A stretch of DNA of 64,000 nt from Chiloscyllium plagiosum. Its lineage: Eukaryota. The notes under the pieces were generated by a model, which worked only from the letters and a program-made list of their open reading frames with translations, was not told the origin of the DNA and did not search any database. The DNA lies in the NCBI RefSeq assembly GCF_004010195.1, contig NC_057718.1, positions 1,408,346 to 1,472,345 on the forward strand, given 5' to 3'. Below, one piece after another: positions 850 through 57,778 of this stretch (its first letter is position 1; every line of letters begins with the position of its first letter). The position numbers were made by a program, and so were the translations under genes.

Positions 850-1209
850 AAAGTGTTGCGCTGGAAAAGCACAGCAGGTCAGGCAGCATCGGCGAGCAGG
901 AGAATCGACGTTTTGGGCATAAGCCCTTCATCAGAAACTGATGTATCCTGAGCTGTTATGGGATAAAGTGAGGACTGCAGATGCTGGTGTTCAGAGTCAA
1001 AATGTGTGGCACTGGAAAAGCACAACAAGTCAGGCAGCATCCGAGAAGCAGGGGAATCGACATTTCGGGCACAAGTCCTTCATCAGAAACTGAAGGGCTT
1101 TTGCCCGAAATGTCGATTCTCCTGCTCCTTGGATGCTGCCTGACCTGCTGCATTTTTCCAGTGCCACACTTTTTGACTCTGATCACCAGCATCTTCAGTC
1201 CTCACTTTG
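850..1209. mobile_element. Three Penelope-like terminal (pLTR) arms; 965-1209 is a fold-back palindrome
   Basis: 965-1087 and 1089-1209 are reverse complements; 850-936 is a third arm; degenerate CTGATGA...GAAA motifs. Confidence 0.8.
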
Positions 1210-2013
1210 TCCCATAACAAGCCAGGATACATCACATCAGACTCTGGGATTTATGCACCTTTACACCCATTAAATTATCCAACACCTTCTCCTTATTAAT
1301 CTTAACATGTTCTTGAACTTCATCATCCCAGCTGAAATGTCCAACTACAATACATTTCTCTTATGTGAATAAAGATATGAAATATTCATTTTAGACCTCA
1401 CCCATGACCTCTGGCTCCACAGCCCATGGTACTGCCCCATCTCCAGTAGGACTGTCTACATACTGGCACAACATGTTCTCCAAGATGCACTGTAACTTTG
1501 TGACTCCATCTGCTCCTTTCACACTAAGACAATTCCAGTTAATGTTAGCAAAATTGAAGTCCTCCACAGCTATAACACTGTTTCTCTAACACCTTTCTGT
1601 GATTTGCTTACACACCTGCTCCCCTATCTCTCTCTGACTGTTGGGAGATCTGTAGCGAAATCCCAGCAAAGTGAACACCCCTTTTTAATTTCAAAGATCC
1701 ACCTAGATGGCCTCATTTGAAGAGCCCTCTAGGACATTCTCTCTCATGAATGAAATGATGATATACTGAAATAAGTAACAGTACATTTCAAACAAACTGG
1801 TTTATCACTATCTGACAGTGATCAGTCCATACAATGTGCTTATCTACACCCTGGAAAGTGAGGAGATAGACATAATCTGTTGAGTCTAATAGTGTCTTTC
1901 TGTTTATGATAAAAATACCGTCACAATGATGCTGTAGTTTCTTTACTGATAGTTGAATTAATGTATCGGAACGAATAGGGAGATTTAGTGAACACTGAAC
2001 ATCAATCACTTAC

Positions 2014-2092
2014 CTGAACAGAATACATGATGATCTTGAAACACCGGACTGCAAACAGCTTAGGCTCCCACAGTGAGTGGTTATCTAAGTGC
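2014..2092 (-). CDS. EFR3B: EFR3B coding exon 8 (79 bp); gene continues beyond position 1
   Basis: HLDNHSLWEPKLFAVRCFKIIMYSVQ; CAG acceptor, GTAAGT donor; completes the phase-2 codon AT|G from exon 7. Confidence 0.95.
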
Positions 2093-2479
2093 CTGAGGAA
2101 CAAATGACAAGGATTTACTTATATTTACATTGGCCCATCCTGTCAAATTCTGCCATGATAGAACTTTAACAAATTCAATTTTTGTGTCTAACCTTTCTTG
2201 TTGTTAAGTGTTGGGGAGAGTGCATCATGTTTGTTTTCAAATCTTTCCATGTCCTTGTCCCTCCCCGTTCTTTAAACTCCAATTCTGGTTTCTGGTTCAT
2301 CCTTGATTTCAATCGTTTCATCACTGGCAGCTATGCCTTCAGATGCTTGGCCCTAAAGTCTTCAATTTCCTTTCTAAAACTCTCCACCTGCCTTGCTTTC
2401 ATCCTTTAGGAAAAACCATCCCTTTGATCAGACTTCTAGACATCTGACCATAAAGTCAAATTATACAATCATAGAATCA

Positions 2480-3055
2480 TAGAGTGTGGTGCTGGAAAAG
2501 CACAGCCAGTCAGGCAGAATCCAAGGAGCAGGAGAGTCGACGTTTCGAACATAAGCTCTTTGTCAGGAATGGGGGGCTAGCCCAAGGTGGCTGAGAGATA
2601 AATGGGAGGGGGGATGGGGAGAAGGCAGCTGGGAATGCAATAGGTAGATGAAGATGGGGGTGAAGATGATAGGTTGAAAAGGAGGGTGGATCAGATAGGT
2701 GGGAAGGAAGATGGACAGGTAGGACAGTTCAAGAGGTTGGTGCTGAATTGGAAAGTTGGATCTGGGATAAGTGGGGGTAGGGGAAATGAGGAAACTGGTG
2801 AAATCCACATTGATCCTGTGTGGTTGGAGACTCCCAAGGCTAAAAATGAGGCATTCTTCCTCCAGGTTAGGCACCCAGGTCGGGTGGCTAGAGTTTGGCG
2901 GTGGAGGAGGCCCAGGAACTGCATGTCCTTGGTGGAATGGGAGGGGGAGTTAAAGTGTTCAGCCACAGGGTGGTGGGGTTGCTTCATGTATGTGTCCCAG
3001 AGATGTTCTCTGAAACATTCGGCAGGTTGGCATCCTGTCTCCCCAATGTAGAGGA
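2480..3055 (-). mobile_element. Penelope-like retroelement 3' fragment (GIY-YIG C-terminus plus pLTR)
   Basis: HPVAEHFNSPSHSTKDMQFLGLLH and LEEECLIFSLGSLQPHRINVDF in different frames, followed by the same terminal repeat as the short palindromes. Confidence 0.8.
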
Positions 3056-3232
3056 GAGCGAAACTAACTAGGTTAGTTTGGGAAACTTGGTCAGCATGGG
3101 TGAGTTGGGCTGAGGGTCTGTTAACGTGCTGTATGACTCTATGACCAGGATCCTGAATCTGAACAAAGGAACTATGATGGCATGAGACGAGACCTGGACG
3201 TCCTTATACACGAGTCACGAAGCATAAGTCTG

Positions 3233-4105: not shown

Positions 4106-4315
4106 GGAGAAAGTGAGGTCTGCAGATGCTGGAGATCAGAGATGGAAATGTGTTGCTGGAAAAGCGCAGCAGGTCAGGCAGCATCTAGGGAACAGGAGAA
4201 TCGACGTTTCGGGCATGAGCCTTCCTGAAGAAGGGCTAATGCCCGAAACGTCGATTCTCCTGTTCCCTAGATGCTGCCTGACCTGCTGCGCTTTTCCAGC
4301 AACACATTTCCACAT
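4106..4315. mobile_element. Fold-back Penelope pLTR element with hammerhead motif and 14-bp TSD
   Basis: Inverted arms; CTGCATTCATCAGG at 4092-4105 and 4316-4329; CTGAAGA-A-GGGC-TAAT-GCCC-GAAACGTC at 4225-4252. Confidence 0.85.
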
Positions 4316-6343: not shown

Positions 6344-7552
6344 CTGTAGTGTTTAAATTAATTCTGTTTGCTTAAAGCTGAGTGGTTTGACTAGTTGCAT
6401 CATCCTTGGAATAGCCACTTCACGGAGGAGATAGTGAGGACTGCAGATGCCGGAGATCAGTGTCGAGAGTGTGGTGCTGGAAAAGCACAGCCGGTCAGGC
6501 AGCATCTGAGGAGCAGGAGAATCGATGTTTCAGGCATAAGCCCTTCATCAGGAATTCCTCTGCTCCTTGAATAGCCATTTCACATCTGGCTTTAAAGTAA
6601 GAAAAAGTTAGGGTCTCGCCTATCTTCATAAAATATTCATATGATATTCGAGGGAGTCTGGCCTGCTGAGTTGTTTAATTGGACGTGGCAGGACTGCAGA
6701 GATTGCATCTGATCTCTTGGTTGTGGGATTACTTAGCTCTGTCTATCATTCCTTGCTTATGGTGTTTGGCATGTGGGAGTCCTGTTTTGTAGCTTCATCA
6801 GGTTGACACCTCATTCTCGGTGTGTTTGATGCTGCTCTGGGCGTGCCCTCCTGCACTCTTTGTTGAGCCAGCATTGATCCCATGGCCTGATGGTAATGGT
6901 TGAGTAGGGAATATGTTGGTTGCAGATTATGTTGGAATACAGTTCTGCTGCTGCTGATGGCCCACAGCGCCTCATGGGTGCTCAGTGTTGAGTAGCGGGA
7001 TTAATTCAAAATCTATCCCATTTAGTGTAATGATAATGTCACACAACATAATGGAAGGGACAGTAAGATTCTCTGTCTCTCTTTCCTAAAAATGTGTGAT
7101 GGACTAGGCCAGACCACTCAAACCACTCTTATGCAGGAAGCCCCAGACCATAACTTTGCAGTTTGTTTCGGTAAGTGTACAGTGAAAATTACCCCGATTA
7201 AGTTAGCAAGGTTGACTACCAGGTTTTAAAACGGACAAAAGTTTATTCACAAAATTAGACAATGACAAACCACAGAATAAAGAACTCCTACTGAACACAA
7301 TCTATCCAAACCACACTTAATTATGCTGTTCTGAATATATACAACAGTCCCAATAAACAAACCCTTAAAAAACAGTACAAATGGAACAAATGCTCACAGG
7401 TTGAAGTCAGAAGGGCAGAAAGAGAGAGAGTTTGTTTCCACACAGCTCACTGTTGAACTCCCAACTAGTTGTGGACAGAACTAAACTGCTCAGTTAGAGA
7501 GCTGACCACTCCCCTTTCATTATACAGGTCACTTCTAAAACATGACCACTTT
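6344..7552 (+). repeat. Left arm of a 1209-bp near-identical inverted duplication
   Basis: Reverse complement of 10672-11880; equal length, only a few substitutions seen. Confidence 0.92.
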
Positions 7553-7667: not shown

Positions 7668-7888
7668 GTAAAAACAATGACTGCAGATGCTGGAAACCAG
7701 ACTCTAGATTAGTGTTGCTGGAAGAGCACAGCAGTTCAGGCAGCATCCGAGGAGCAGTAAAATCGACGTTTCGGGCAAAAGCCGTTCATCAGGATGCTGA
7801 GCACCCATGAAGCGTTTCCTGATGAAGGGCTTTTGCCCGAAACGTTGATTTTACTGCTCCTCGGATGCTGCCTGAACTGCTGTGCTCT
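7668..7888. mobile_element. Fold-back Penelope pLTR element (second subfamily) with hammerhead motif
   Basis: Inverted arms; CTGATGA-A-GGGC-TTTT-GCCC-GAAACGTT at 7819-7846; flanked by TTAGTTCAAAA(T/G)CTA direct repeats. Confidence 0.8.
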
Positions 7889-8449
7889 TAGTTCAAAAGC
7901 TATCCCATTGAGTGTAATGATAATGTCATACAACATAATGGGAGGGACAGTAAGATTCTCTGTCTCTCTTTCCTAATAGCCCAGATTTTGTTAGCACTAA
8001 AGTAGAGGCCATCCTTATGCCCTGAGACATAACATGGCTGAACTCCCTCTGCCTTTATTCCCTTCCTAAAGTAACCGGTGTCCCAGCTGGCGAGTGCAGA
8101 TGGCCTCTACTTTAATGTTAGCAATATTATGAGCAAGACAGTTGAGTTAGGGTGTGGATTGACATTTGGAATTCCGATGTTGCCACAGGGAAATGGTTGA
8201 GGGAGGAGCAGGACTGACAATTCCACATTCTGGGGTATGGGATCTCAGACAGGGCAGGAAGGGCAGCCTGAATTCAAAATGGGCTCACTAAGTGAGAGTG
8301 GTTTTAAAAGGCTATATGTGTGACTGAAGGCTGATGTACATTGGAAACTGGTGTTCCACAGGTATCACTGCTGGGCCTTGAATCGTTTGTGGAACATATA
8401 ACCAATATAGATGAGAATGTTGGGGGTGGGGGAGCATAATAAGTTTGAA

Positions 8450-10671: not shown

Positions 10672-11880
10672 AAAGTGGTCATGTTTTAGAAGTGACCTGT
10701 ATAATGAAAGGGGAGTGGTCAGCTCTCTAACTGAGCAGTTTAGTTCTGTCCACAACTAGTTGGGAGTTCAACAGTGAGCCGTGTGGAAACAAACTCTCTC
10801 TCTTTCTGCCCTTCTTACTTCAACCTGTGAGCATTTGTTCCATTTGTACTGTTTTCTAAGCGTTTGTTTATTGGGACTGTTGTGTATATTCAGAACAGCA
10901 TAATTAAGTGTGGTTTGGATAGATTGTGTTCAGTAGGAGTTCTTTATTCTGTGGTTTGTCATTGTCTAATTTTGTGAATAAACTTTTGTCCGTTTTAAAA
11001 CCTGGTAGTCAACCTTGCTAACTTAATCGGGGTAATTTTCACTGTACACTTACCGAAACAAACTGCAAAGTTATGGTCTGGGGCTGCCTGCATAAGAGTG
11101 GTTTGAGTGGTCTGGCCTAGTCCATCACACATTTTTAGGAAAGAGAGACAGAGAATCTTACTGTCCCTTCCATTATGTTGTGTGACATTATCATTACACT
11201 AAATGGGATAGATTTTGAATTAATCCCGCTACTCAACACTGAGCACCCATGAGGCGCTGTGGGCCATCAGCAGCAGCAGAACTGTATTCCAACATAATCT
11301 GCAACCAACATATTCCCTACTCAACCATTACCATCAGGCCATGGGATCAATGCTGGCTCAACAAAGAGTGCAGGAGGGCACGCCCAGAGCAGCATCAAAC
11401 ACACCGAGAATGAGGTGTCAACCTGATGAAGCTACAAAACAGGACTCCCACATGCCAAACACCATAAGCAAGGAATGATAGACAGAGCTAAGTAATCCCA
11501 CAACCAAGAGATCAGATGCAATCTCTGCAGTCCTGCCACGTCCAATTAAACAACTCAGCAGGCCAGACTCCCTCGAATATCATATGAATATTTTATGAAG
11601 ATAGGCGAGACCCTAACTTTTTCTTACTTTAAAGCCAGATGTGAAATGGCTATTCAAGGAGCAGAGGAATTCCTGATGAAGGGCTTATGCCTGAAACATC
11701 GATTCTCCTGCTCCTCAGATGCTGCCTGACCGGCTGTGCTTTTCCAGCACCACACTCTCGACACTGATCTCCGGCATCTGCAGTCCTCACTATCTCCTCC
11801 GTGAAGTGGCTATTCCAAGGATGATGCAACTAGTCAAACCACTCAGCTTTAAGCAAACAGAATTAATTTAAACACTACAG
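10672..11880 (-). repeat. Right arm of the 1209-bp inverted duplication
   Basis: Mirror of 6344-7552: a composite of LTR-like, pLTR and LINE pieces with identical junctions. Confidence 0.92.
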
Positions 11881-12867: not shown

Positions 12868-13075
12868 AAAATGTGTTGCTGGAAAAGCGCAGCAGGTCAG
12901 GCAGCATCCAGGGAACAGGAGAATCGACGTTTCGGGCATAAGCCCTTCTTCAGGAATCAGGCTTATGCCCGAAACGTCGATTCTCCTGTTCCCTGGATGC
13001 TGCCTGACCTGCTGCACTTTTCCAGCAACACATTTTCAGCTCTGATCTCCAGCATCTGCAGACCTCACTTTCTCC
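12868..13075. mobile_element. Fold-back Penelope pLTR element with an intact hammerhead motif on the minus strand
   Basis: Near-perfect inverted arms; the reverse strand of 12926-12953 reads CTGAAGA-A-GGGC-TTAT-GCCC-GAAACGTC. Confidence 0.85.
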
Positions 13076-13552: not shown

Positions 13553-13711
13553 GTGGAGAAGTTAGCACGGACACTGTTCCTGTGGAAACTCGATGTCCAC
13601 GAGCAGAAGGAGCGAGTTTACGAGATGCGGCGATGGAACGAAGCGCTTGTCACCAACATGTTACCAGAACATGTTGCTCGGCACTTCCTCGGCTCCAAGA
13701 AGCGAGATGAG
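13553..13711 (+). CDS. ADCY3: Adenylate cyclase 3 exon (159 bp), start of the C2 cytoplasmic region
   Basis: [56 protein letters not shown] acceptor; GT donor (weak, GTTATC). Confidence 0.95.
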
Positions 13712-13859
13712 GTTATCAATAAATCACATTTATTATCCACGTTTCTGCTGCCTCTCTCTCTCTCCCCCCACTCCGCCTTTCTCTCCATCTCTCTCAGTCA
13801 AGCTCTGTCTGTTTCTTGCTCTCCATTTTACCCTTTCTCTCTGTCACCTCTCTTTATAT

Positions 13860-13890
<31 letters not shown>

Positions 13891-14014
13891 AATCACCCTC
13901 TTTTATTTAGTGTCCCTAACATCCTCTCTGTTACTCCTGATGCCTCCCTAACGGTGCTAACTTACACTAGATACTGTTATTAAAATGTTCGCTCAAATGT
14001 TTTCCAACCTGCAG

Positions 14015-14161
14015 GAATTGTATAGTCAGTCGTATGATGAGATTGGGGTCATGTTTGCATCAATCCCCAATTTCTCCGACTTTTACACCGAGGAGAGTAT
14101 TAACAATGGAGGCATTGAGTGTCTGCGATTCCTCAATGAAATTATCTCGGATTTTGATGGT
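14015..14161 (+). CDS. ADCY3: Adenylate cyclase 3 exon (147 bp), C2a catalytic domain
   Basis: [52 protein letters not shown] acceptor, GTAAGT donor. Confidence 0.96.
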
Positions 14162-14199
14162 GTAAGTAGAGGGTCTGAATTTTGTCAATTTATAACTGT

Positions 14200-15060
14200 A
14201 CAAGGTAATGTTCTGAGCACCCAGGTATGATTGCCGCTAGTTCAGATGGGGAGCAAGAATGATTGTCCTGAGCAAAGGTCATCACCAGATACTGACTGAA
14301 CTCCACTAGAGTCATCCAGGAGTGTCCAAAATGAAGATGTTGGCAAGATGTTATGTCTGGTGGCCAGGATTGGATGCCAACATAACCACGTTGGTAAGCA
14401 GTGCCAACATGGACAAAAATTACTGCAGCAGTTCCCCCCCCCATATTCATGGGAATGGCCGAGTAAACACTGGACTATACCAGTTCCTTCATGAGTTCGA
14501 TGCCTTTAGTCATTGTGGACGCCCATTCAAAGTGGTTGGACATGCATAGAGTTCATTCATCAAACATGGGGACAACAATTGAAAAATTGTGAGCATCTTT
14601 TGCATTACACAGACTCCCAGAAATGTTGGTCACAGATAATGGGCCATCATTTAACAGCAGGGAATTTGAGTATTTTCTAAAGTTGAATAGGATTCAATAT
14701 GTAAAGACAGCTCCACCCATTGTCCAATGGTCTGGCAGAAAGAGCCGTGCAAATTTCGAAGGTAGGCTTAAAGAAACAGCCTACAGCTTCACCCAATACC
14801 ACACTCTCCCAGTTCCTGTTTAATTATAGGACCACCCCTCATGCTTCTACAGGGATAGCTCCAACAGAGCTGCTAATGGAGAGAAGAATTTGCAGCAGTT
14901 TAAACCTGATCTTCCCAGACTTGCAGGGGAGGGTGAAATGGCATCAGAACGCCAATAACTTACATAAGACCCTTTAAGCAGAGAAACAGTTTACTTCAGG
15001 GGATGAAGCTAGGTGTGTGGACACGGAAATCACTCTGCAAGAGTAAGATACATGATCGAG
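14200..15060 (+). mobile_element. Degenerate Ty3/Gypsy LTR-retrotransposon integrase fragment
   Basis: Frameshifted segments HPGVSKMKMLARCYVWWPGLD, VDAHSKW, LVTDNGPSFNSREF, SNGLAERAVQ and FLFNYRTTPHASTGIAPTELL (zinc-binding region and DDE core). Confidence 0.88.
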
Positions 15061-15289
15061 CGAGGTCAGGTTTTGTGATGTATAACAGGGACAGGTTGGG
15101 AGCGAGAGGGGTGCGGTGTTGGACGGGGTTGAGGGTGAGAGGAGGGCCGTGTTGGTTGGGGTTGGGGGGCGAGCGTCGGTGAGGTGTTGGGCAGGGTTGG
15201 GGGGTCGGGGGTTCACGTGCGGTGTGCTGCTGCCTCCTGCAGAGACCTGGGATAGGTCCCATCTGGCCCTGGGGACCTACCTACCCTAA

Positions 15290-16230
15290 TGCAATTTAGA
15301 ATACCCGAAATTTCCTCCTTCAATATGTTGACATTCGCTGGATAACACACTCATCCCTAACCTCAACATCAGATATGCCCTAGTCCTTGGTGAATACTAA
15401 TACAAAGTACTCATCAAGGATCTCTCCCACCTCCTGTGGCTTCATGCATAACTTCCCTCTCTGTTTTAATATCTGCATAAAAAGCCCTGGGAATCTCCTT
15501 GATCCTGTTTGCAGAAGATATTTCATGGCTCCTTTTAGCCTTCCTAATTCCATGTTTAAGTTCCTTCCTAATTTCTGTATACCCCTCGAGGGCTTCATCA
15601 GTTTGTAGCTGCCTAAACCTATTATGTGCTTCCTTTTTTGTACAATATTCCTTGTCACCCATAGTTCCTGAATCCTGCCATTCCTATCCTCCAGTTTTGC
15701 AGGTACATGCATATCCTGCATTTGAATGAGCTGGTCTTTAAAAGCCTCCCACATGCCAGACATAGATTTGCCCTCAAGTAACTGTTCCCAATCCATATTC
15801 CCCAGTTTCTGGCTAAGTTGGATGTAATTGGCCCTTCGCCCAGTTAAGCACCCTCACCCAAGGACCACTCTTGTCTTTGTCCATGACTACTCGAAACGTT
15901 GTGGAGTTATGGTCATTAGGCCCAAAATGCTCTCCTACTGAAACATCGATCAACTGTCCTGGCTCATTCCCTAATACCAAGTTCAGTATGGCCTCCTCTC
16001 TGTATGTTGGATTGTCAACACACTGTCTCAAAAAGCTCTCCTGGTCACATCGAACAAATCCATCTGACCTCCTGGCTCTAAGGTTGTCCCAGTGAATAAG
16101 AGGAATATTAAACTCACCCACCAGAGGTACCGTGCTTTTTTCACAACGTCCCAGTATCTGACTTCATATCTGCTCCTCTGTCTCTCCTGGGCTGATAGAA
16201 GGCCTATAGAAAACTCCCAACATTATGATT
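15290..16230 (-). mobile_element. CR1 ORF2 fragment (end of endonuclease)
   Basis: GEFNIPLIHWD...AILNLVLGNEPGQ...EHFGPNDHN in ORF 15813..16121. Confidence 0.85.
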
Positions 16231-16236
16231 TCATGA

Positions 16237-16421
16237 TGTAGTGTTTGGAATGAGGTCAGTCAGGTTAACCTGGTCCAATTAGGGAGCCCTAGCTATCAAA
16301 TATAAACAGGAGTGTCAGGGGTCTGCTCACTCTAAGAGCTGGGTCAGTGTCATGTACTGTGCACATGTCAATAAAGGGTGACTTGGTAACAGGATTCTGG
16401 CAGCCGTGGAGTTATGTCGAC
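16237..16421 (+). mobile_element. Short LTR-like segment, possibly belonging to the Gypsy element
   Basis: TGT...ACA ends, internal TATAAA and AATAAA. Confidence 0.4.
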
Positions 16422-16635
16422 ATCCTCATGTTCAAATATTCCATCACCTTAGTTCTCCCTGTTTCCACAACTTGAGACTTGGAAATTGCGAGTTCTCATT
16501 CAGCTTGTGCCTGCCTTATCTGATCGTCAAGAAGTGACTACTATCACTGAATGCCTGAGGTCTGATTGAAGGGTCTCCTACTGTGGTTTTAAAGTTTAAA
16601 TTCTATTCCCACTGTTGTATTCTTCTCTTTCTCAG

Positions 16636-16755
16636 TTATTGGATGAACCTCAGTTCCGAAACATCACCAAAATCAAGACCATTGGGAGCACCTATATGGC
16701 AGCATCCGGCTTAATCCCAGACACCAATCCCAGCAGTTACAACAGTACTGTCAAA
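16636..16755 (+). CDS. ADCY3: Adenylate cyclase 3 exon (120 bp), C2a catalytic domain
   Basis: [40 protein letters not shown], containing the [14 protein letters not shown] cyclase motif; polypyrimidine-CAG acceptor, GTAAGT donor. Confidence 0.96.
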
Positions 16756-16824
16756 GTAAGTGCTTCTTGAGTGAGTGACTGAGTCAGCGAGAGATTTGGA
16801 CAAAGTTTGCCCATTTGGGCTGCA

Positions 16825-17655
16825 ACTTGTGAAACTTGAAAGAGTTCAGAAAAGATTTACAAGGATGTTGCCAGGGTTGGAGGATTTGAGCTATAGGGAG
16901 AGGCTGAACAGGCTAGGGCTGTTTTCCCTGGAGCGTCAGAGGCTGAGTGGGGACCTTATAGAGTTTTATAAGATCATGAGGGGCATGGATAGGATAAATA
17001 GACAAAGTCTTTTCTCTGGAGTGGGAGAGTACAGAACAAGAGGGCTAGGTTTAGGGTGAGAGGGGAAAGATATAAAAGAGACCTAAGGGACAACTTTTTC
17101 ATGCAAAGGGTGGTACATGTATGGAATGAGCTGCCAGAGGAAATGGTGGAAGCTGGTACAATTACAGCATTTAAAAGGCATTTGGATGGGTATATGAATA
17201 GGAAGGGTTTGGAGGGATGCTGGCAGGTGGGACTACATTGGGTTGGAATTAGTGAGTTTTGAGAAGATTTGTAGATTGGCTCGGGGTATCTGGTCAGCAT
17301 GGATGGGTTGGACCGAAGCGTCTGTTTCCGTGCTGTGTATCTCTATGGTTCTGTGAACACAGGGATTGTACACAAAACACAGGAAACTAGTACGCAGGGA
17401 GTCAGGAAGGCTCATGGACTGTTGGCCCTTATTTCAAAGAGGTTGATGTGTAAGAGTACAGAAGTCTTTATTGCAACTGCACAAGGTGCTAATGAGACCA
17501 CATCCGGAGCTCTGAGAGTGTTTTTGATCCCGTTATTTCAGGAGAGATATCATTTCATTAGAGGCAGGTATATTGGGATGATTCCTGGTACAGAGGAATT
17601 GTATTGTAAGCAAAGGCTAAACACGTTGGGACTCTATATTAGAATTCAGAAAATG
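16825..17655 (+). mobile_element. CR1 3' fragments
   Basis: LERVQKRFTRMLPGLEDLSYRERLNRLGLFSLE; FFMQRVVHVWNELP; CTCTATG-type tail. Confidence 0.88.
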
Positions 17656-17721
17656 TGACCGCCAGTTAATCTTACTCATTGGCACATTTATTAACTTTTT
17701 TATTCTCACTCTTTTTTACAG

Positions 17722-17851
17722 AAGGATCAAGAAAAATCCATGAAGGAACGCTGGCAGCACCTGGCAGACCTGGCAGACTTTGCACTGGCCATGAAAGTCA
17801 CTTTAATGAACATTAATTATCAATCATTTAATAACTTCATGCTACGCATTG
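17722..17851 (+). CDS. ADCY3: Adenylate cyclase 3 exon (130 bp), C2a catalytic domain
   Basis: [43 protein letters not shown](G); CAG-AAG tandem acceptor, GTAAGA donor. Confidence 0.95.
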
Positions 17852-17872
17852 GTAAGAGTGGTTAATGTAATT

Positions 17873-18092: not shown

Positions 18093-18094
18093 GT

Positions 18095-20425
18095 TTTGTA
18101 CAACCCAACAATCCATGTTGACCAAATTTCCTAAACTCAACTAGTTCCATCTTTGCTTCCAGCTTTGACAAAGTGTCAGTTAGATTCGAAACGTCAGCTC
18201 TTTTCTCTCCTTACAGATGCTGCCAGACCTGCTGAGATTTTCCAGCGTTTTTTCTTTTCGTTCCATCTTCCTGTGTTTGGGCAATTATCCATCTAAGCTA
18301 TTCTTATCCATGTACTTGTCCAAATGTCTTTTAAATGTTGTAATTGCACCCATCTCTGCTACTTCCTCTGGCAGCTCATTCCAAATACACACCACCCTCT
18401 GTGTGAAAATGTTGCCCCTCAGGTCCCTTTTAAATCTTTCCCCTCTCACCTTAAAGCCATGCCTCTGGTTTTGGACTCTCCTATCCTGGGGAAAAGACCT
18501 TAGCTATTCACCTTTTCTAAATCCCTTATAAACATCTATATGGTCACCCCTGAGTCTCAGATGCTCCAGGTAAAAAAGTCCCAGCCTATCCGGCCTCTTC
18601 TTGTAACTCAAACTTCCCAGTCTCAGTAATATTCTTTCCAGTTTAATATGATCCATCCGAAACTAAGGCAACCAGAATTGTATGTTGTACTCTAAATGAG
18701 CCTCACAATATCTTGTACAGCCATAGTATGACATTCTAACTCCTGTACTCAATGCTCTGACCAATGAAGGCATGTGTGTCAAACGCCTCCTTCACCACCC
18801 TATCTACCTGTGATGCCACTTTCAAGGAACTATGTACCTGCACTCCAAGCTGTTTGACAACACTCCTCAGGGTGCTAACATTAATTGTGCAAGTTCAGCC
18901 CTGGTTAGTCTTATCAACTTTAGAAAAAAAATACGGGGCACGGACTATTTTCTAAAGGGCGTGAAAATTCATTAAGCCAAAGTACAAAGGGATCTGGGAG
19001 TGTTGGTCTAGGATTCTCTAAAGATGTGGATGCTTTGGAATGGATTCAGAGGAGGTTTACCAGGATGATGCCTGGACTGGAGGTCTTATCTTATGAAGAG
19101 AGGTTGACTGAGCTCGGACTTTTTTCATTGGAGAAAAGGAGGAGGAGAGGGGACCTAATTGAGGTATACAAGGTAATGAGAGGCATAGATAGAGTCGATA
19201 GCCAGAGACTATTTCCCAGGGCAGAAATGACTAACATGAGGGGTCATAGTTTTAAGCTGGTTGGAGGAAAGTATAGAGGGGATGTCAGAGGCGGGTTCTT
19301 TACACAGAGAGTTGTGAGAGCATGGAATGCATTGCCAGCAGCAGTTGTGGAAGCAAGGTCATTGGGGACATTTAAGAGACTGCTGGACATGCATATGGTC
19401 ACAGAAATTTGAGGGTGCATACATGAGGATCAATGATCGGCACAACATCGTGGGCTGAAGGGCCTGTTCTGTGCCGTACTGTTCTATATTCTATGTTCTA
19501 TGACTGGGGGCATTCTGGTGAAGTTTGCCGACAGGCAGGTCGTTCTGAGGAGGTGGGGAGGCTGCAGAAAGATTTAGACAGTTTAGGGGAGTGGTCCAAG
19601 AAATGGCTGAGGAAATTCAACGTGAGCAAATGCGAGGTCTTGCACTTCGGAAAAAAAAATACAGGGACGGACTATTTTCTAAACAGTGAGAAAATTCATT
19701 AAGCCAAAGTACGAAGGGATCTTGGAGTGCTACTCCAGGATTCTTTAAAGGTTAACTTGCAGGTTGAGTCTGTGGTTAAGAAAGCAAAAGTAATGTTGTC
19801 ATTTATCTCAAGAGGGTTGGAATGTAAAAACAGCGATGTGCTACTGAGACTTTGTAAAGCTTTGGTTAGGCCCCATTTAGAATACTGTGTCCGGTTTTGG
19901 GCCCCACACCTCAGGAGGGATATACTGGCACTGGAGCGTGTCCGGTAGAGATTCACACGGATGATCCCTGGAATGGGAGGCCTAACATATGATGAACAGC
20001 TGAGGATCCTGGGATTGTATTCATTAGACTTAGAAGGTTGAGGGCAGATCTAATAGGAACTTACAAGATAAAGCATGGTTTAGAAAGGGTGGATGCTGGG
20101 AAGTTGTTTCCGTCAGGATACTAGGACCCATGGGCACAGCCTTAGAATTAGAGGGGGTCAATTTAAAACGGAAATGAAGAAACACTTCTTCAGCCAAAGA
20201 GCGGTGGGCCTGTGGAATTCATTTCCACGGAGCGCAGTGGAGGCTGGGATGCTGAATGTCTTCAAGGCAGAGATTGATAAAGTCTTAATCTCGCAAGGAA
20301 TTAAGGGATATGGGGAGAGTGTGGGTAAGTGACGTTGAAATGCCCATCAGCCATGATTGAATGGTGGAGTGGACTCCATAGGCTGAATGGCCTTACTTCC
20401 ACTCCTATGTCCCATGGTCTTATCA
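18095..20425. mobile_element. CR1 3' fragments (minus 18095-18920; plus 18920-20425 with a further copy at 19026-19503) and a pLTR insert at 18154-18259
   Basis: ALVRPHLEYCVRFWAPH and FFTQRVVRAWNALP; GTTCCATCTT TSD at 18144-18153 and 18260-18269. Confidence 0.85.
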
Positions 20426-20448
20426 AAATGCCTTGATGTGGAGGAGAC

Positions 20449-20944
20449 GGTGTTGGACTGGGGTGGACAAAGTTAAAAATCACACAACACCAGGTTATAG
20501 TCCTACAGGTTTAATTGGAAGCACACTAGCTTTCGGAGCGCTGCTCCTTCATCAGGTGATTGTGGAGAAAAAGACTGTAAGATACAGAATTTATAGCAAA
20601 AGTTTAGAGTTTGATGCAATTGAAATGATATATTGAATAAACCGAGATTGCTGTTAAGTCTTTCATCCTTTAGAATGAGTTGCAGGTTTCGGTTCATTAA
20701 TATGTAAATCTCAGAACCACTTTTAAATCGCATTCTCAAGATAACTTAAGGTTTGATAAAATAAAGGTGACATCTCAGCTCAGTGCATGAAAGGTGTGAG
20801 ATTAAAGTCTGTCTGTGTCCCAATAATGAGTCAGACTGGTTATCTTTCCAAATTTACAAAATATTACATGTATTGACTGCCTGTCGGTTATGCATTTTTT
20901 GAGCAAAATAGAATGTATCTGCAAATATAATTCTGCAAATACAT
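20449..20944 (-). mobile_element. Penelope-like terminus, family 2, with hammerhead motif
   Basis: The reverse strand of 20524-20558 reads CAC-CTGATGA-A-GGAGC-AGC-GCTCC-GAAAGCTA-GTG; the same family occurs at 24890-25305. Confidence 0.75.
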
Positions 20945-37150: not shown

Positions 37151-37318
37151 CTCAGCAGGTCTGGCAGCATCTGTAAGGAGAGGAAAGAGCTGACAAAGGG
37201 TCAGTTAGACTCGAAGCGTCAGCTCTGTTCTCTCCTTACAGATGTTGCCAGATTTGCTGAGATTTTCCAGCATTTTCTTTTTTGGTTTCAGATTCCAGCA
37301 TCCGCAGTAATTTGCTTT
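37151..37318. mobile_element. Penelope-like terminus, family 3, partly fold-back
   Basis: TAACAGGATATT direct repeats; decayed motif CTGACAA-A-GGGTC-AGTTA-GACTC-GAAGCGTC at 37190-37220. Confidence 0.72.
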
Positions 37319-37455
37319 TAACAGGATATTGCCTGGGCTGGAGAGTTTTAATTATGAAAAAAGATTGGATAGATGAGTTGTTTTTCTTGGAGCAGAGGAG
37401 ATGGGGTGGGGGGGGGGGGGGGCGGGGGGAGCATGATTGAGTTGTACAAAATTAT

Positions 37456-37583
37456 TCCTGAAGAAGGGCTCATGCCCGAAACGTCGATTCTCCTGCTCCT
37501 TGGATGCTGCCTGACCTGCTGCGCTTTTCCAACAACACATTTTCAGCTCTAATCTCCAGCATCTGCAGTCCTCACTTTCTCCA
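37456..37583 (+). mobile_element. Solo family-1 pLTR with intact hammerhead motif and 13-bp TSD
   Basis: TGTACAAAATTAT at 37443-37455 and 37584-37596; CTGAAGA-A-GGGC-TCAT-GCCC-GAAACGTC at 37458-37485. Confidence 0.85.
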
Positions 37584-40925: not shown

Positions 40926-41053
40926 TCGGGGTGATTACAATAAGGGTAAGGTGCGAAGGTACAGGTAAAGATTAGGGAGTCATGGAAAAATGAATGAGGG
41001 AGAATAATGTTTAGTGAACTCTCTTGACCACAAGGTTCCATGATTGCATTGAG

Positions 41054-41173
41054 GAGAAAGTGAGGACAGCAGATACTGGAGATCAGAGTGGAGAGTGTGG
41101 TGCTGGAAGAGCACAGCTGGTCAGGCAGCATCTGCGGAGCAGGAAAATTGACATTTCAGGCATTACTCCTTCA
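41054..41173 (-). mobile_element. Solo family-1 pLTR with 17-bp TSD
   Basis: TCCATGA(T/C)TGCATTGAG at 41037-41053 and 41174-41190. Confidence 0.8.
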
Positions 41174-41673
41174 TCCATGACTGCATTGAGTAAAATTATC
41201 TGATTTCAGAGCAACAGTTTGGGCCTTACATAATTGATATCTAAACTCTGGATAGAAGCAGATTAAAAGATCAAAATTGATAGAAGATAATAACCTAAAC
41301 AGATTCTCTCCTCATTGGACATCTTTGGGAATCAGTGCCTAATCCTGACATCTGAATCCATTTGGACAATGTATGGTGGTTGATGGGCGCTGATTTCAGG
41401 AGTTTATGGTTCTTCCATAAAGAGTGGAAGGGGACAGTAGCCAATTTGAAATGGGGAGAAAGCTTGTGGAATAAACTTGGAGATCATTGTAAACAGAAAT
41501 CTTTGCCCTGACTTTCTGGGCATACGACCTGCCCTGGACATTCTGAACCATGCACAACAAAAATCACAGTTAAATGCTTTAGCAAGCGCTCTGCTCTGTA
41601 GCATCAAAGTAAGTGTACAATTGATCATTCAATCTTACAAATCAGTACTCTAAATAAAGGGGCAGAAGGTTAC

Positions 41674-48150: not shown

Positions 48151-48161
48151 CTGCACATCTT

Positions 48162-53099: not shown

Positions 53100-53780
53100 G
53101 TACATCCTTGTGCACAACACTTTATACCACAGAATTCTGCAATCTCTCTTCCTCCCCCCTCACCACTGTCCAAGGCCTCAAAGGTGCCTTCCACATCCAT
53201 CAGTTTTACCTGCACTTCCACACATATCACTTACTGCATCCAATTCAGAGAACTCTTTGGGACACCCACACCAACCAACCCCACCGTCCCGTGGCCAAAC
53301 ACTTCAACTCACCCTCCAAAGCCGCCAAGGACATGCAGGTCCTGAGCCTCGTCTATTGCCACACCTTAACCACCCGAGGACACCTGGAGGAAGAATGCCT
53401 CATCTTACGCCTTGAGACCCTCCAACCCCATGATATTGATGTGGATTTCACCAGTTTCTTCATTCCCCTCTCCCCACCTTATCCCAGATCCAATCTTGGA
53501 ACTCAGCACAGCCCTCATGACCTGTCCTACCTGTCCATCTTCCTTCCCATCTATCCGCTCCACCCTCCTCTCTGACCTATCACCATTACCCCCACCTTCA
53601 TCTACCTAGCACACTCTCAGCTACCTTCCCTCCAGCTCCATCCCTCCTCCCATTTATTTTTCCACCCCCCCCTTGGCTCACAAGCCTCATTCCTGATGAA
53701 GGGCCTTTGCCCGAAACGTTGATTCTCCCGCTAATTGGGTCTTGCCTGACCTGCTGTGCTTTTCCAGTACCACACTCTTG
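53100..53780 (+). mobile_element. Penelope-like retroelement 3' fragment (GIY-YIG region plus pLTR with hammerhead motif)
   Basis: FTCTSTHITYCI, PVAKHFNSPS and LEEECLILRLETLQPHDIDVDF; CTGATGA-A-GGGC-CTTT-GCCC-GAAACGTT at 53693-53720. Confidence 0.85.
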
Positions 53781-53844
53781 ACCTGTTTCTCCACAGATAC
53801 TGCCAGACCTGCCAAGTTTTTCAGCAATTTCTGTTCTTGTTTGA

Positions 53845-56100
53845 AGTAATATGTCACTTTTCTATTCTTTTTGTCAAAATGGAAAACCTCATATTTTCCC
53901 ACATTAAACTCCATCTTCCAAATATTTTTTCCACTCATTTACCTTTACACTTAAATGCCTTTTCAGACTCTTTGTATCACCATCCCTGCAACACAACCAT
54001 CACCCCCCACTTGCTTTCCTATCTATCAATGCATCATTAACAAATTTGACTACAGTATAGTCTGTTCCTGCATCCAAGTTATTCGCATAATTTGTCAGTT
54101 GTTCAGGCCACAGTACTATCCCTGGTGGCACTTCACTTGTTAGTTTACCGTGCTGAAAATGATCAATTTATCACAACGCTGTTTTCTATTACTTGGATAA
54201 TCCTTTATCAAGATACTTTATCACTCTCACCAACATGAGCTCTTGCATTGTTCAGTAATCTTTTCTGTGGGATCTTAGCAAATGTCTTTTGGAAATTCAA
54301 ATACGCCACAACTACTAGTTCCTTTTCATTCACCCTACCTGTTAGATTGTCAAAGAACTCTGACAAATTTGTCAGATATGGTTTTACTTTTAGAAAACCA
54401 TATTGACATGGTTTGATTGTATTATGATTTTCATAATATTTGTCTGTAGCTTTTAGAATGGATTCGAGCATTTTCCCAAAGACTGATGTTAGACTAACTG
54501 ATCCACTGTTTCCTGCTTTTGGTTTATTCTTGAATATATTTTCAAATCTGTTTGGCCCTGTCCAGAATATGGGGAATTTTGTCATGTATCCATCATCACT
54601 GCAGCAATTTCTTTAAGAGTTGAGATATCATGTTAAGGTTGTACAGGACTTTAGTGAGGCCTCTTCTGGAGTGCTGTATCTAGTTCTGGCCACCCTGTTA
54701 TAGGAAAGACATCATTAAGCTGGAGAGGGTTCAGAAAAGATTGGCAAGTATGTTGTCAGGAATGGAGGATTTGAATTATAAAAATTGGCTGGTTAGGTGG
54801 GACTTTATTCACTGGCGTGTAGGAGGTTGAGGGGGGACCTTATACAGGTTTATAAAAATCATGATTTGATTTGATTTATTGTAGTCACATGTACCTAAGT
54901 ACAGTGAAAAGCTTTGTTTTGTGAGCAGTACAGGCAGATCATAGCAAACGAGAACATACGGATCAAAGGGTGCTTAGACAGAGTGAGGCATACAGGTTAC
55001 AACAGGATGTACGCAAAGCAAGATCAACATTATTTGAATTTAGACTGTCCATTCAGCAGTCTCATGTCGGCAGGGAATAAGTTATTCTTGAACCTTTTGG
55101 GGTGTGTTCAAGCTTCTGTATTTTCTGCTTAAACAGATGCGGTTGTAGGAGAGTATTACCAGGGTGGGAGGGGTCTTTGAAGATGTTGTCAGCCTTTCCA
55201 CAGCAACAAGAGGTGTAAATGGAGTCCATGGATTGGGTGTTAGTATCCAAGATAGTCTGGGCAGTTGCTGTACCAGGCCATTATGCACCCAGCTAACATG
55301 CTTACTATTGTGAACCTGTAAAGGTTGGTGGGGGTCCTTATAGACACGCCAAATATCTTAAGCTACTTGAGGGAGAAAAGGCATTGTTGTGTCTTCTTGT
55401 GGCCAGGACAGGTTGTCAGTTATCATCACTCCTAGTAACGTGATGCTCTTGACTCTCTTCACCTCAGCTCCATTGATGTAGATAGGGCGCAATCTCGTCC
55501 TTTCTTCCTGAAGTCAATGATCAGTTTTTTTGTTTTGCAGACATTGCGAGAGACGTTGTTATTACTGCACTACAACACCAAGCCCTCTATCTCCTCCTTG
55601 TATTCTGACTCATCGTTATTTGTTATCTGTCCTACCACGGTGGTTTTGTTAGCAAATTTGCAGATGGCAGTTGTTCGGAATTTGGCTACACAGTCTTAGT
55701 GTACAGTGAGTATGGTAGGGTGTTAAGAACACATCCCTGGGGGGGCCTCAGTACTGAGAGTTATCATGGAGGAGGTGCAGTTGCTTATCTTAACTGAGGG
55801 ACATAGATAAGGTGAATATCAAGGGTCTTTTCCCTGGAGTGAGGGATATTTTTAAAGTGAGAGGAGAAAGATTTTAAAAAGACATGAGGGCAACCTTTTT
55901 CCACAGACAGTGGTTCATGCATGGAATGAACAGAGGAAGTAATGGATGCAGGTACACTTACAGCATTTTAAAAACATTTGGCTAAGTACATGAATAGGAA
56001 ATCTTTGGGGGATATAGGCCAGGCGCAGGCAGGTGGGACTCGTTTAGTTTGGGATGATGGTCAGTATGGACTGGTTGTACTCAAGGGTCTTTCTTCAAGT
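53845..56100. mobile_element. CR1 fragments (minus 53845-54600; plus 54620-56100) with a nested minus-strand LINE 3' end at 54862-55795
   Basis: CR1 RT motifs; the nested element ends in AATAAA-(TCAAA)n on the minus strand. Confidence 0.7.
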
Positions 56101-56913
56101 TATTTGATGCTATCAGACCCCGCGGTGGTTTTCTAACAAAAGGTATAATGGGATCACTCAAATCTTTATACATTAGTTGCTGGTTGATTTCTTTTGGCTG
56201 AACCAATGTTTGGTGTTTAACTTGCTTTGTTCAAATTACTGAGTTGATATGGGGTGGAGTGGCAGGTGCCGTAGGACCATGACAGCAAATCTTCTGCGCA
56301 AACTAGTTTCTCTAAATATGCTTAGGATGTAATGAGTGCGGAAGAATGAACAGAAGTTACGCACAGCAGTACAAGACATTAGAAGACAAAACAGGACAAA
56401 TGGAACTCCCAGTAGAATTCCTAAACTGCCTAGCTCTATTTAACCTCAACAACAAATAATAAATGAGTTATACACAAAAATAAAGCAAAGAACTGCAGAT
56501 GTTGAAACAAAAATAGACATTTCTGGAGAAACACAGTAGGTCTGGCAGTATCTGTGGAGAGAAAGCACAGTTAAAGTTCAAGTCCAGTGACCCTGCTTCA
56601 GAACTCAATAAATGAGTCATCTATGTTAGAATGAAGACAGGATCATTATAGGGTCCCGAATAGCATGGAGTAGACGAGAAATGCGACAGAATCATGCAAG
56701 AAGTCCAGTGAGGCTCATTTCAATGTTGGGAACAACTCGCTGCATCTTTTCCAGGTATCAAGTTAAGATTCTTATTATGCTGTGGCAAGTTACCTTTAAA
56801 GGGGCAATTATTGCTTGTTGATGACCTTAATATCTGCAGTTTCAGCTCATTAATGCAGCTTTCTATTTCACCATTTGCCATGGAGAAATCTAGATCCTGA
56901 GAATTCTTAATTA

Positions 56914-57110
56914 GAGACAAAAAGACTGCTGATGCTGGAATCCAAAGCAGACAAGCAGGAAGCTGGAGGAACACAGCAAGCCAGGCAGCATCATGAGGTA
57001 GAGAAGTCAACATTTCAGATATAACCGATCATCAGGGTTATACCCAAAACTTCTCCACTTCCTGATGCTGCTTGGCTTGCTGTGCTCTTCTAGCCTCCTG
57101 CTTGTCTGCC
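56914..57110. mobile_element. Fold-back Penelope-like terminus (diverged subfamily)
   Basis: Inverted arms GCAGACAAGCAGGA...TCCTGCTTGTCTGC; GAGAATTCTT direct repeats at 56899-56908 and 57111-57120; hammerhead core decayed. Confidence 0.7.
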
Positions 57111-57399
57111 GAGAATTCTTGACATGAAGCTCAAAACAAATACCTGGTGACCAGCTCACTGCTGTCTGCCAAGAGCCTTCATGTTGGTCAACACACAACC
57201 CATGCCATAGAAACATTTAAGCAAACAAATTGGGAGGAATAAGTCATTCGGTCCTTTGAACCAGCTCTGCCATTGGATATGATCATGAATGATCATTCAA
57301 CTTGGTATCCTATTCCCAAACCCCCGCAGATACTTTGATCTCATTAGCCCAAGAACTATATCTAAGTCTTTCTTTAAAAGATTCAACATTTTGGCTTCA

Positions 57400-57778
57400 G
57401 GATAGGTTTGCTCGCTGAGCTGGGAAGTTCATTTTCAGATGGATCGTCACCATAACATCTTCAGTGAGCCTCGGGACAAAGCACTGCTAGTGTTTCCTGC
57501 TTTCTATTTATATGTTTTGGTTTTCTTGGGTTTCCTTGGGTTGGTGATGTCATTTCCTGTGGTGACATTATTTCCTTTGACAGTGTCATTTCCTGTTTTT
57601 TTCTCAGGGGGTGGTAAACGGGGTCCAAGTCAATGTGTTTGTTGTTTACAGTTCCAGTTGGAATGCCATGCTTCCAGGAATTCTCTTGTGTGGCTCTGTT
57701 TGGCTTGTCCTAGGATGACCTGGATGTCCTACATCCAGAAGCTCAACCTGAGCTAAAAAACTTCTCAAAACCTGCTAA
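57400..57778 (-). mobile_element. Penelope-like 3' fragment, same family as 22122-22515
   Basis: Minus strand reads ILGQAKQSHTREFLEAWHSNWN (end of a GIY-YIG-type ORF); terminal sequence shared with 22122-22515; ATTTTGGC.TCA direct repeats. Confidence 0.7.

Follow-up and report, generated by a model that had tools for sequence, protein, structure and literature searches.

The window, a 64,000-nt stretch of the Chiloscyllium plagiosum genome, contains a dense population of short elements whose hammerhead motifs, judging by their letters, are rightly taken to be real and to be the minimal type-I hammerhead motifs of Penelope pseudo-LTRs (pLTRs). We think it probable that they do not form a mobile element of their own but are short products of insertion by several Penelope-like element (PLE) families that encode an endonuclease. 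The same degree of confidence extends to the prediction that most inserted copies in the window would be unable to cleave, their core being mutated, buried in a hairpin or without a dimer partner.

All seven motifs that an earlier note located in this DNA read CTGANGA-A-stem II-GAAA-NN-TH in the window letters, position for position. Shuffled sequence yields the pattern 0.69 times on average (maximum 3; none of 100 shuffles reaches 14), whereas the window has 14 matches. Of these, 13 lie inside repeat families, the exception being at 19545. With a stricter descriptor, requiring at least 4 pairs in stem II, there are nine matches against a mean of 0.03 in 200 shuffles; eight insertions in 61 kb reach the descriptor level. 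Each of the seven named motifs has an extra base between A9 and 10.1, a G10.1-C11.1 pair, a palindromic 15.2-16.2 stretch, no helix III loop and a helix I of 1-3 bp. The palindromic stretch is ACGU in families A, C and D and AGCU in family B. The note's assignment to the type-I minimal hammerhead of Penelope pLTRs, with an extra base after A9 and a palindromic stretch suited to dimers, was correct (compare PMC4209133). Inspection of four families (A, B, C and D), without statistics, shows that the sequences of helices I, II and III vary by family yet remain paired. The check that the note had suggested, a search with Rfam hammerhead models, gave no match at the gathering score and none among the 18 hits at E up to 10. 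Sub-threshold Rfam hits to microRNA precursors coincide with the palindromes and were rejected as generic hairpin matches.

In total, 23 loci were found, corresponding to 22 insertions in five families (A-E) once 6427-6570 and 11654-11797, both within a 1573-bp inverted duplication (94%), are merged. This is one insertion per 2.8 kb of the 61,198 non-N bases of the window, of which the elements fill about 8%, in good agreement with the earlier estimate of about 20 insertions at roughly one per 3 kb. The five families replace the single shared set of termini that had been described, and the statement that most insertions carry the full motif was too generous: 11 of 22 have all 12 core letters on an arm, eight have the core plus stem II, and seven also retain the 15.2-16.2 pair. 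Counted by arm, 13 of the 21 tabulated have 12/12 letters, in a table anchored by script since MAFFT misaligned family C.

The family A insertions are as follows. The cluster at 838..1212, on mixed strands, has two minus arms head-to-tail, 838-937 (G12>A) and 961-1089 (core 12/12, one stem II mismatch), and an inverted plus arm, 1092-1212, without the first core letters; its period is 152 bp, including captured flank, and it is the only tandem pair in the window. Four head-to-head palindromes, each with a tail reached by one arm only, occupy both strands. At 4106..4312 the plus arm is intact (4225-4252), the minus arm begins in stem II and bears the tail, and a 15-bp target-site duplication is present. 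The palindrome at 7676..7889 has a 22-nt spacer, an intact plus arm (7819-7846), a minus arm with G10.1>C and a target-site duplication. At 12868..13075 the minus arm is intact (12926-12953), the plus arm begins in stem II and bears the tail, and the arms are 99% complementary. The fourth, 25052..25242, is nested in a family B palindrome and has an intact plus arm (25155-25182), a minus arm that begins at C15.2 and pairs across the cut site, and a target-site duplication. The solo 129-bp stub at 37454..37582 (plus strand) consists of an intact motif (37458-37485), a body and a tail of about 37 bp, flanked by a 13-14-bp target-site duplication. An older solo stub, 41053..41175 (minus), begins inside the core, with C3 and U4 absent, and has a 17-bp target-site duplication. 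The stub at 6427..6570 (minus; core 12/12, G16.2>A) carries the tail and an inverted arm of about 15 nt, and its copy at 11654..11797 (plus) lies in the 1.57-kb inverted duplication. Tail-only pieces without a ribozyme are found at 26166..26200 and 28505..28551, both minus. Two 5'-truncated elements lack the tail: 2481..3059 (minus), with a GIY-YIG C-terminal remnant, a pyrimidine-rich 3' region and a hammerhead with C3 at 2566 and G8>A; and 53150..53782 (plus), with a GIY-YIG remnant, the 3' region, an intact motif (53693-53720) and an initiator-like motif at 53687-53693.

Family B is represented by an end with tail at 20439..20563 (minus), for which no adjoining target-site duplication was found and whose intact motif (20527-20555) has a 5-bp stem II, a CUA triplet and a 3-bp helix I, and by the palindrome at 24884..25306 (both strands; minus arm G12>A, plus arm C3>G), which is split by the family A insertion. 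In family C, the long-armed palindrome at 22118..22486 (both strands) has a 12/12 core with a damaged stem II on the plus arm (22404-22437), G8>T on the minus arm, and a 13-bp duplication at 22111 and 22516; the 5'-truncated element at 57396..57778 (minus) has a short endonuclease-like coding end, a decayed hammerhead, a short inverted tail piece at 57731-57770 and a 12-bp target-site duplication. The family D solo copy at 18151..18268 (plus) has U3/A8 in place of C3/G8, a 4-bp helix I, one stem II mismatch and a 12-bp target-site duplication, and the family D palindrome at 37150..37318 (both strands) has A8, A15.1>G and a 14-bp target-site duplication. Family D-like pieces are a fragment cut by an N gap (21445..21515, minus), a body fragment without a core (53786..53845, plus) and a decayed solo copy with tail and a 14-bp target-site duplication (56471..56605, minus). 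The family E palindrome, 56911..57110 (both strands), has a 12/12 core with a broken stem II on its minus arm and a 12-bp target-site duplication.

The link to Penelope proteins comes from the two truncated family A copies, 2481..3059 and 53150..53782, which extend into GIY-YIG coding sequence upstream of the motif. Window positions 2880-3056 are 81% identical to Chiloscyllium punctatum protein P0166, which comprises the C-terminal part of a reverse transcriptase (RT) and a GIY-YIG domain; longer relatives of P0166 carry the RT. P0166 has a CxxC just before its GIY-YIG domain, and the window copies end short of that point. Family A is tied to a protein with a cysteine pair before GIY-YIG, which may be Neptune-like. 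Of the GIY-YIG fragments proposed earlier, those at 2480-3055 and 53100-53780 held up; that at 57400-57778 did not, being the end of a family C copy whose short match (9 of 19 residues, E 4e-5) is to RT proteins of another group. Families B, D and E have no coding link within the window. Pfam did not detect the decayed GIY-YIG fragments, a homolog search with the 53240-53452 fragment returned nothing, and metagenome contigs contained no instance of an exact 33-nt pattern.

The ends of the copies carry much of the argument. Eleven of the 22 insertions have an inverted arm, a feature absent from the earlier account: nine are long head-to-head palindromes, with arms 1-17% divergent and unequal in length, and two have a short arm. 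A solo stub accounts for just one of the seven named motifs, 37458; those at 4225, 7819, 12926 and 25155 are palindrome arms, 53693 terminates a long truncated copy, and 20527 lacks an adjoining target-site duplication. When the family A arms are aligned, 10 of 18 end at the tail end (0 or -1) and the rest stop earlier, three of them at -39 to -43 or nearby. The 3' end is common to tail-only pieces of 35-47 bp, 129-bp stubs and pieces of about 580-630 bp with coding sequence, which makes the earlier description of the copies as non-autonomous mini-retroelements a weak one. At the 5' side, the direct arm begins between -4 and +2 of C3 in eight of the 12 family A insertions, and of the remainder two are long and two are tail-only; the 5' side of the cut site is therefore retained in those direct arms. 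Several 5' edges are blurred by microhomology, and the start at 12957 could be -4 or -11. Of the 20 insertions tested (of 22), 12 are flanked by a target-site duplication, 12-17 bp long and allowing no more than one mismatch, and none was found at the other eight. Bases beside the tail ends in the window are 47-80% AT, not clearly AT-rich, so no target preference is evident there. The window has no full-length element, and ARAGORN found no tRNA genes, although decayed tRNA-like heads could escape it. PLEs are known to have an optional 30-40-bp tail on one end and an adjacent inverted, 5'-truncated copy (bioRxiv 2021.04.23.441226; PMC3846280), and the shared 3' ends, the optional tail of about 37 bp, the target-site duplications and the two copies that run up into GIY-YIG match such canonical insertions.

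We propose that the elements look like short reverse-transcription products of uncut RNA and not like a separate mini-element. The PLE RNA would consist of a minimal type-I hammerhead, a body of about 60 nt and a tail of about 37 nt. The PLE protein would nick DNA and prime reverse transcription inside this RNA, at the tail end or the tail start, producing the fixed 3' ends. The template would be RNA uncut by the ribozyme, and synthesis would usually get no further than the hammerhead's front edge, about 90-130 nt along. A fold-back or template switch at that point, presumably frequent, would give palindromes that have a target-site duplication and a tail on one of the arms. Active masters would maintain the ribozyme fold, and inserted copies would decay neutrally. 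We infer the internal priming, the uncut template and the fold-back from the green anole PLE study and the PLE literature. For the anole element PAc, two internal RT start sites have been reported, unprocessed RNA is the main substrate and ribozyme mutants leave insertion unaffected (PMC11167929).

Reads and contigs from other data were compared with the 37454-37582 stub, and contigs matching one family number more than 90,000 in each run. Among loose 3' ends genome-wide, 37582 ranks first (934 and 1047 contigs, 720 RNA reads). The consensus of loose 5' ends at 37454 terminates as the upstream pLTR does, which means that many copies extend beyond this point on the 5' side. Exact head-to-tail joints from 37582 to 37454, 129 nt, occur in 30 and 25 contigs of two organisms, with 20 and six more one base over. 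The tight 5' edge and the exact 129-nt joints also fit a dedicated 129-nt unit. Two of the five strand-change joints listed (62 more exist) lie at or beside the cut site, at 37486 (five and three contigs) and 37488 (four and three contigs, one read). In RNA, from one polyA single-cell run of which about 2 in 100 reads were read, 96% of 3162 placed reads continue into unlike sequence, in both orientations. The same sample has no pile-up of RNA starts or ends anywhere, the cut site included, which is a weak test, and one RNA read has the head-to-tail joint, in a polyA library unsuited to circles.

It is tempting to give the front-edge stop a strong-stop reading, although we consider it rather unlikely. 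The PLE RNA would start at the A of TCATTCC, 4 nt before C3, and reverse transcription from about 129 nt downstream would run off the capped end. The stub, the 129-nt tandems (by template jumps) and the palindromes (by fold-back) would then be fossils of the first transposition step in hundreds of thousands of copies, and the minority of inverted arms starting at G1.1 would record templates cut in vivo. That A coincides with the commonest 5' loose end as well as with the commonest head-to-tail joint, and the sequence around it fits YYANWYY and BBCABW in each of the two long copies, as about one position in 55-80 would by chance. Against it, 357 RNA reads extend upstream of the A and RNA starts do not pile up at it; moreover, PLEs favour this ATT as a target, and it offers a patch of microhomology.

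The exact joints, together with the clustered 5' edges, raise a further alternative, namely a dedicated non-autonomous unit of about 129 nt, SINE- or retrozyme-like, with its own transcription, perhaps from dimer-cut circularised tandems, and moved in trans by the PLE protein. The window's tandem pair would also fit, and Xenopus retrozymes are reported to derive from pLTRs, with retrozymes present in one chondrichthyan genome (bioRxiv 2026.07.22.740005). We judge such a unit improbable, since the 3' end is identical on 35-bp, 129-bp and 600-bp copies, many copies continue upstream of 37454, ARAGORN detects no tRNA-like head, and one unit of the window's sole tandem carries G12>A. Moreover, a circle cut at 17 gives no ground to stop 4 nt before C3, and the joints could be explained if new copies inserted into the ATT at the start of the unit, since the anole enzyme favours this target (PMC11167929).

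Hairpins penalise the ribozyme fold by 13.5-43.9 kcal/mol in four palindromic motifs, compared with 2.2-4.7 in four non-palindromic ones. Four of the seven motifs named as intact sit in long hairpins, including both of those noted as sense in ADCY3: for 4225 and 7819 the probability of stem II is 0.000 and the penalties are 33 and 44 kcal/mol. The 2.1-1.1 pair has a probability of at most 0.02 in all seven, and when two copies are co-folded the lowest-energy form is not a dimeric hammerhead. Among inserted copies, G12 decays like neighbouring CpG sites: in sequence at least 85% alike, among the best 40 of 71 rows, which contain no other core position, G12>A makes up 8.5% and 13.7% of depth in two DNA runs, and five neighbouring CpG positions 6.5-16.5%.

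That a meaningful share of inserted copies are active ribozymes, cutting host pre-mRNA such as that of ADCY3 in cis or as trans dimers and so affecting gene output, is therefore very doubtful. Seven copies do retain core and helices, 37458, 53693 and 20527 lie outside long hairpins with small penalties, and family reads occur in polyA RNA. These points are outweighed by the pairing of 4225 and 7819 with their own inverted arms, the 1-3-bp helix I and scarce 2.1-1.1 pair, the decay of G12 and, as a weak test, the cut site without a pile-up. Published assays point the same way: minimal hammerhead monomers do not cleave and dimers do so weakly (PMC4209133), the anole ribozyme requires the PLE protein (PMC11167929), and one of nine Xenopus dimers cleaved (bioRxiv 2026.07.22.740005); dimer cleavage of PLE hammerheads is attributed to Lunse et al. 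in a review (PMC6765202). As for ADCY3, four exons lie on the plus strand at 13553..17853 (about 13553-13711, 14015-14162, 16642-16755 and 17723-17851), with no catalogued element between them, and tblastn at E up to 5 found neither the upstream nor the last exons. The intronic position of 4225 and 7819, with no exon found upstream of 13553, is presumptive.

It is hardly credible that the palindromes and duplicates arose in part from misassembly of a gapped short-read scaffold. Such an origin would fit the five N gaps, the 1573-bp inverted duplicate, whose ends are identical and which bears an identical copy of an insertion, and the known trouble that PLE structures give assemblers (bioRxiv 2021.04.23.441226). 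Against it, the arms differ by 1-17% and in length, target-site duplications flank whole palindromes, and strand-change joints recur in independent contigs from two organisms.

Published work already describes minimal hammerheads in the ends of Penelope elements, both single and in opposite-strand pairs. Cervera and De la Pena (2014, PMC4209133) described in metazoan PLE pLTRs the same type-I layout, extra 9/10.1 base, G10.1-C11.1 pair, palindromic 15.2-16.2 stretch and short helix I. As here, a genome could hold several families, most motifs stood singly and were associated with truncated PLEs, some formed opposite-strand pairs at distances of 100-700 bp, and a U3-A8 variant of the core occurred. 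About 4,000 motifs were reported for coelacanth and 9,000 for Xenopus; in the portions of that paper drawn on here, no shark is named and 5' edges and inversion points are not mapped. Canonical endonuclease-bearing PLEs (Arkhipova et al. 2013, PMC3846280; Craig et al. 2021, bioRxiv 2021.04.23.441226) show the same 5' truncation, head-to-head inverted pLTR, 30-40-bp tail on one end, target-site duplications of 8-10 bp or longer, solo pLTRs and initiator-like pLTR motif, whereas nearly all window copies are shrunk to the pLTR end alone. In PAc, a Poseidon element (Frangieh et al. 2024, PMC11167929), the same hammerhead lies about 100-130 nt upstream of two 3' ends that bound the tail, and inserted copies retain the uncut ribozyme, as here; family A, in contrast, is linked to a putatively Neptune-like protein and is described here from its sequence. 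Non-LTR retrozymes (Cervera and De la Pena 2020, PMC7229834; Li et al. 2026, bioRxiv 2026.07.22.740005) are likewise short non-coding type-I hammerhead units, kin to PLE pLTRs. They are described as tandem arrays with a complete hammerhead per unit and circular RNA, whereas copies in the window are scattered, either single or palindromic, apart from one tandem pair that is broken. Among the families of the latter study there may be a chondrichthyan one similar to those described here. No description of these families was found among the papers located on Penelope elements in sharks or Chiloscyllium, and the whale shark repeat table does not itemise Penelope; the families may already be annotated in Repbase or Dfam.

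These elements extend a known kind to a shark-like genome. What sets them apart is how very densely they are packed and how tightly their 5' edges cluster at the ribozyme. They also call for caution, since most motifs here are probably dead or hairpin-locked and the palindromes mimic microRNA precursors in Rfam scans. The role of the PLE ribozyme and the start and stop sites of reverse transcription could be answered by counting junctions in this genome.

All seven hammerhead motifs that the earlier note had called intact (4225, 7819, 12926, 25155, 37458, 53693 and 20527) are present in the window. It is 64,000 bases long, is interrupted by five N gaps and has 61,198 called bases. It contains 14 matches to CTGANGA-N10-20-GAAANNTH (0.69 in shuffles) and 9 to a descriptor requiring stem II (0.03 in shuffles). 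BLAST and profile searches of the window located Penelope-like element (PLE) end pieces at 23 loci, which fall into five families (A to E). Two loci represent one insertion within a 1573-bp inverted duplication, leaving 22 insertions, one per 2.8 kb, in agreement with the earlier estimate of about 20 at one per 3 kb. They cover about 8% of called bases (4.9–5.3 kb, according to the end point taken for the 20439 copy). All 12 core letters are kept in 13 of 21 tabulated arms; the table covers arms that begin ahead of the core, and neither tail-only pieces nor the most heavily decayed copies. The claim that most insertions carry the full motif is overstated: an arm with a 12/12 core is present in 11 of the 22, accompanied by stem II in 8 and by both stem II and the 15.2–16.2 pair in 7. 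An Rfam search of the window gave no hammerhead matches. The motifs are thus genuine and numerous, and they belong to a class already in the literature, the minimal type-I hammerheads of PLE ends. PMC4209133 describes the same motif as dispersed singles and opposite-strand pairs, with a U3-A8 variant, numbering about 4,000 in coelacanth and 9,000 in Xenopus; for axolotl the figure in PMC7229834 is up to 120,000, and bioRxiv 2026.07.22.740005 links retrozymes to pseudo-LTRs (pLTRs), one chondrichthyan included. A search of openly accessible papers found no description of these shark families.

The link to GIY-YIG sequences proposed for three fragments stands for two. In family A, 2481–3059 and 53150–53782 run upstream of the motif into GIY-YIG coding remnants, while 57396–57778, of family C, has just a 19-residue match to another RT protein group. 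Among named proteins, the one closest to a PLE fragment belongs to Chiloscyllium punctatum (81% identity), so that the host is a shark-like animal. P0166, the C. punctatum protein matching the family A remnants, comprises the C-terminal part of the RT, a CxxC and the GIY-YIG end; longer relatives of it have the RT. Judged from a linker feature rather than a tree, the family A PLE may be Neptune-like; the feature is named as marking Neptune in the introduction of Craig et al. (bioRxiv 2021.04.23.441226). Families B, D and E, with no coding link within the window, are assigned by motif and architecture, supplemented for D and E by their sequence similarity to A. LINE fragments are also numerous in the window, e.g., 23758–24207 (+) and 51138–52001 (−), and encode RT or AP-endonuclease domains (Pfam RVT_1, Exo_endo_phos). 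One of them seems to harbour the solo stub at 37454. By resemblance, these fragments look CR1-like.

The likeliest reading of the copies is that several PLE families left them behind as short insertion products, most of which have decayed or are locked in hairpins. Relative to the 129-bp family A solo stub, a short PLE end copy at 37454–37582, 10 of 18 other family A arms stop at the end of the tail, an optional 3′ piece of about 37 bp. Tail-less 3′ ends lie at −39 and −43, and in four long palindromes just one of the arms extends into the tail. Among 12 family A insertions, 8 start at −4 to +2 of C3, two are long and two tail-only, in an alignment that by construction could not pass −4, with flanks assessed by eye; 12957 may reach −11. 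Flanking direct repeats of 12–17 bp are present at 12 of the 20 insertions checked for them. Published PLE insertions likewise show an inverted 5′-truncated copy, a one-ended optional tail and a TSD (bioRxiv 2021.04.23.441226 and PMC3846280). Since the stubs retain sequence 5′ of the cleavage position, they were probably copied from uncut templates, in line with in vitro results for the anole element PAc, whose tail is bounded by two internal RT start sites (PMC11167929).

We consider it probable that a PLE protein would nick target DNA, prime internally from one of the tail sites in the RNA, copy uncut RNA and halt close to the 5′ edge of the hammerhead, the product frequently folding back. 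Anatomy and decay are seen directly; priming, template state and fold-back would follow by analogy with published work. The stop could reflect the place where the RNA starts, stalling at the folded ribozyme followed by joining through microhomology, or the existence of a dedicated unit. That the stubs are a dedicated non-autonomous unit is rather unlikely. In reads compared with a 209-bp reference at 85% likeness, depth is limited to 37454–37582, and loose ends are most frequent at 37582 (3′) and 37454 (5′). The 5′ loose-end consensus, of low agreement, ends like the upstream pLTR, and thus a share of copies extends upstream. Among joints, a head-to-tail one linking 37582 to 37454 has the most support (30 and 25 contigs). 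Of the joints listed, with 62 more beyond these, five change strand; two of the five, at 37486 and 37488, fall at or beside the cut site, with 3–5 contigs each and positions blurred by microhomology. At 838–1234, an apparent flank of about 23–30 bp was copied with the element into tandem and inverted arm alike, which suggests capture of neighbouring sequence during template switching.

Four of the seven named motifs are arms of long head-to-head inverted pairs, which the note overlooked. There are nine such loci (arms 51–144 nt, 83–99% complementarity), and two more have a short inverted arm. In equilibrium predictions, which leave protein help and co-transcriptional folding outside, forcing the hammerhead shape in read-through RNA would cost 33.1 kcal/mol at 4225, 43.9 at 7819, 33.3 at 12926 and 13.5 at 25155, against 2.2–4.7 at 37458, 53693, 20527 and 11673; even in these four the 2.1–1.1 pair has a predicted probability of at most 0.07. 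Inverted arms at 4222, 12960 and 57035 (two families) all break at the second base of stem II, and an upstream AAGCC in family A, complementary to stem II/loop II, is a possible fold-back guide. At 11654–11720, a short inverted arm ending near 1.1 could lengthen helix I of its copy, itself weakened by G16.2>A and a G-U at 10.1–11.1. Palindromes at 12894–13010, 25101–25231, 37162–37250 and 56945–57111 give below-threshold Rfam microRNA-precursor matches (E down to 9e-7); they would make long double-stranded RNA and could be Dicer/ADAR substrates or false microRNA calls.

Stem II is GGGC/GCCC in A, GGAGC/GCTCC in B and GGGTC/GACTC in D; helix I is CAC/GTG in B, CTCA/TGAG in C and AGCT/AGCT in D; the 15.1–16.1 stretch is ACGT or AGCT. 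Since the helices differ between families yet stay paired, the masters probably keep the fold. In inserted copies (sequence at least 85% alike, best 40 of 71 rows), the essential G12 is A in 8.5% and 13.7% of depth in two DNA runs. Both values lie inside the 6.5–16.5% range seen at five nearby CpG sites, and they are no lower than at 37523, a CpG G that is not part of the ribozyme (about 7% and 3%). This pattern fits neutral decay for that single position. The family D core at 18165–18203 has U3...A8 in place of C3...G8 and a 4-bp helix I. In a vertebrate, it thus resembles the variant with a compensated core known from Schistosoma; A8 recurs in the second D copy (37190), and U3 is in one copy only. 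A polyA single-cell RNA run gave 3162 matching reads in the roughly 2% of it that was sampled, in both orientations, 96% continuing into unlike sequence; they show no pile of starts or ends, the library being a weak test for cut ends. Ribozymes active in the host are a very improbable explanation.

An assembly artefact is very improbable. The contigs matching the family A reference, 104,345 and 92,241 in DNA runs of two organisms, are a measure of very high abundance in both, not of copy number. The 1573-bp inverted duplication (5983–7552 and 10672–12235, 94% identity, about 3.1 kb apart), with identical inner ends and family A insertion and differing outer ends, could be real or two haplotypes assembled together. 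Nearby, four + strand exons of ADCY3 (named from UniRef and NCBI) lie between 13553 and 17853 and span about residues 861–1044. By tblastn no further exons, neither earlier nor conserved last ones, were found in the window; the introns of the gene are therefore very long or exons lie in gaps.

The initiator consensus is YYANWYY. Both long copies have an initiator-like motif whose +1 is the A at −4, matching this and BBCABW, the consensus in PMC5287114. It is conceivable, if doubtful, that this A is the PLE RNA start and the stubs strong-stop products. Against this, the two long copies are related by descent and the motif is a degenerate one; in addition, 357 RNA reads run on upstream, and ATT is a preferred cut motif of the anole enzyme (PMC11167929). 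If the RNA does start at the −4 A, the stubs would map the first step of PLE transposition.
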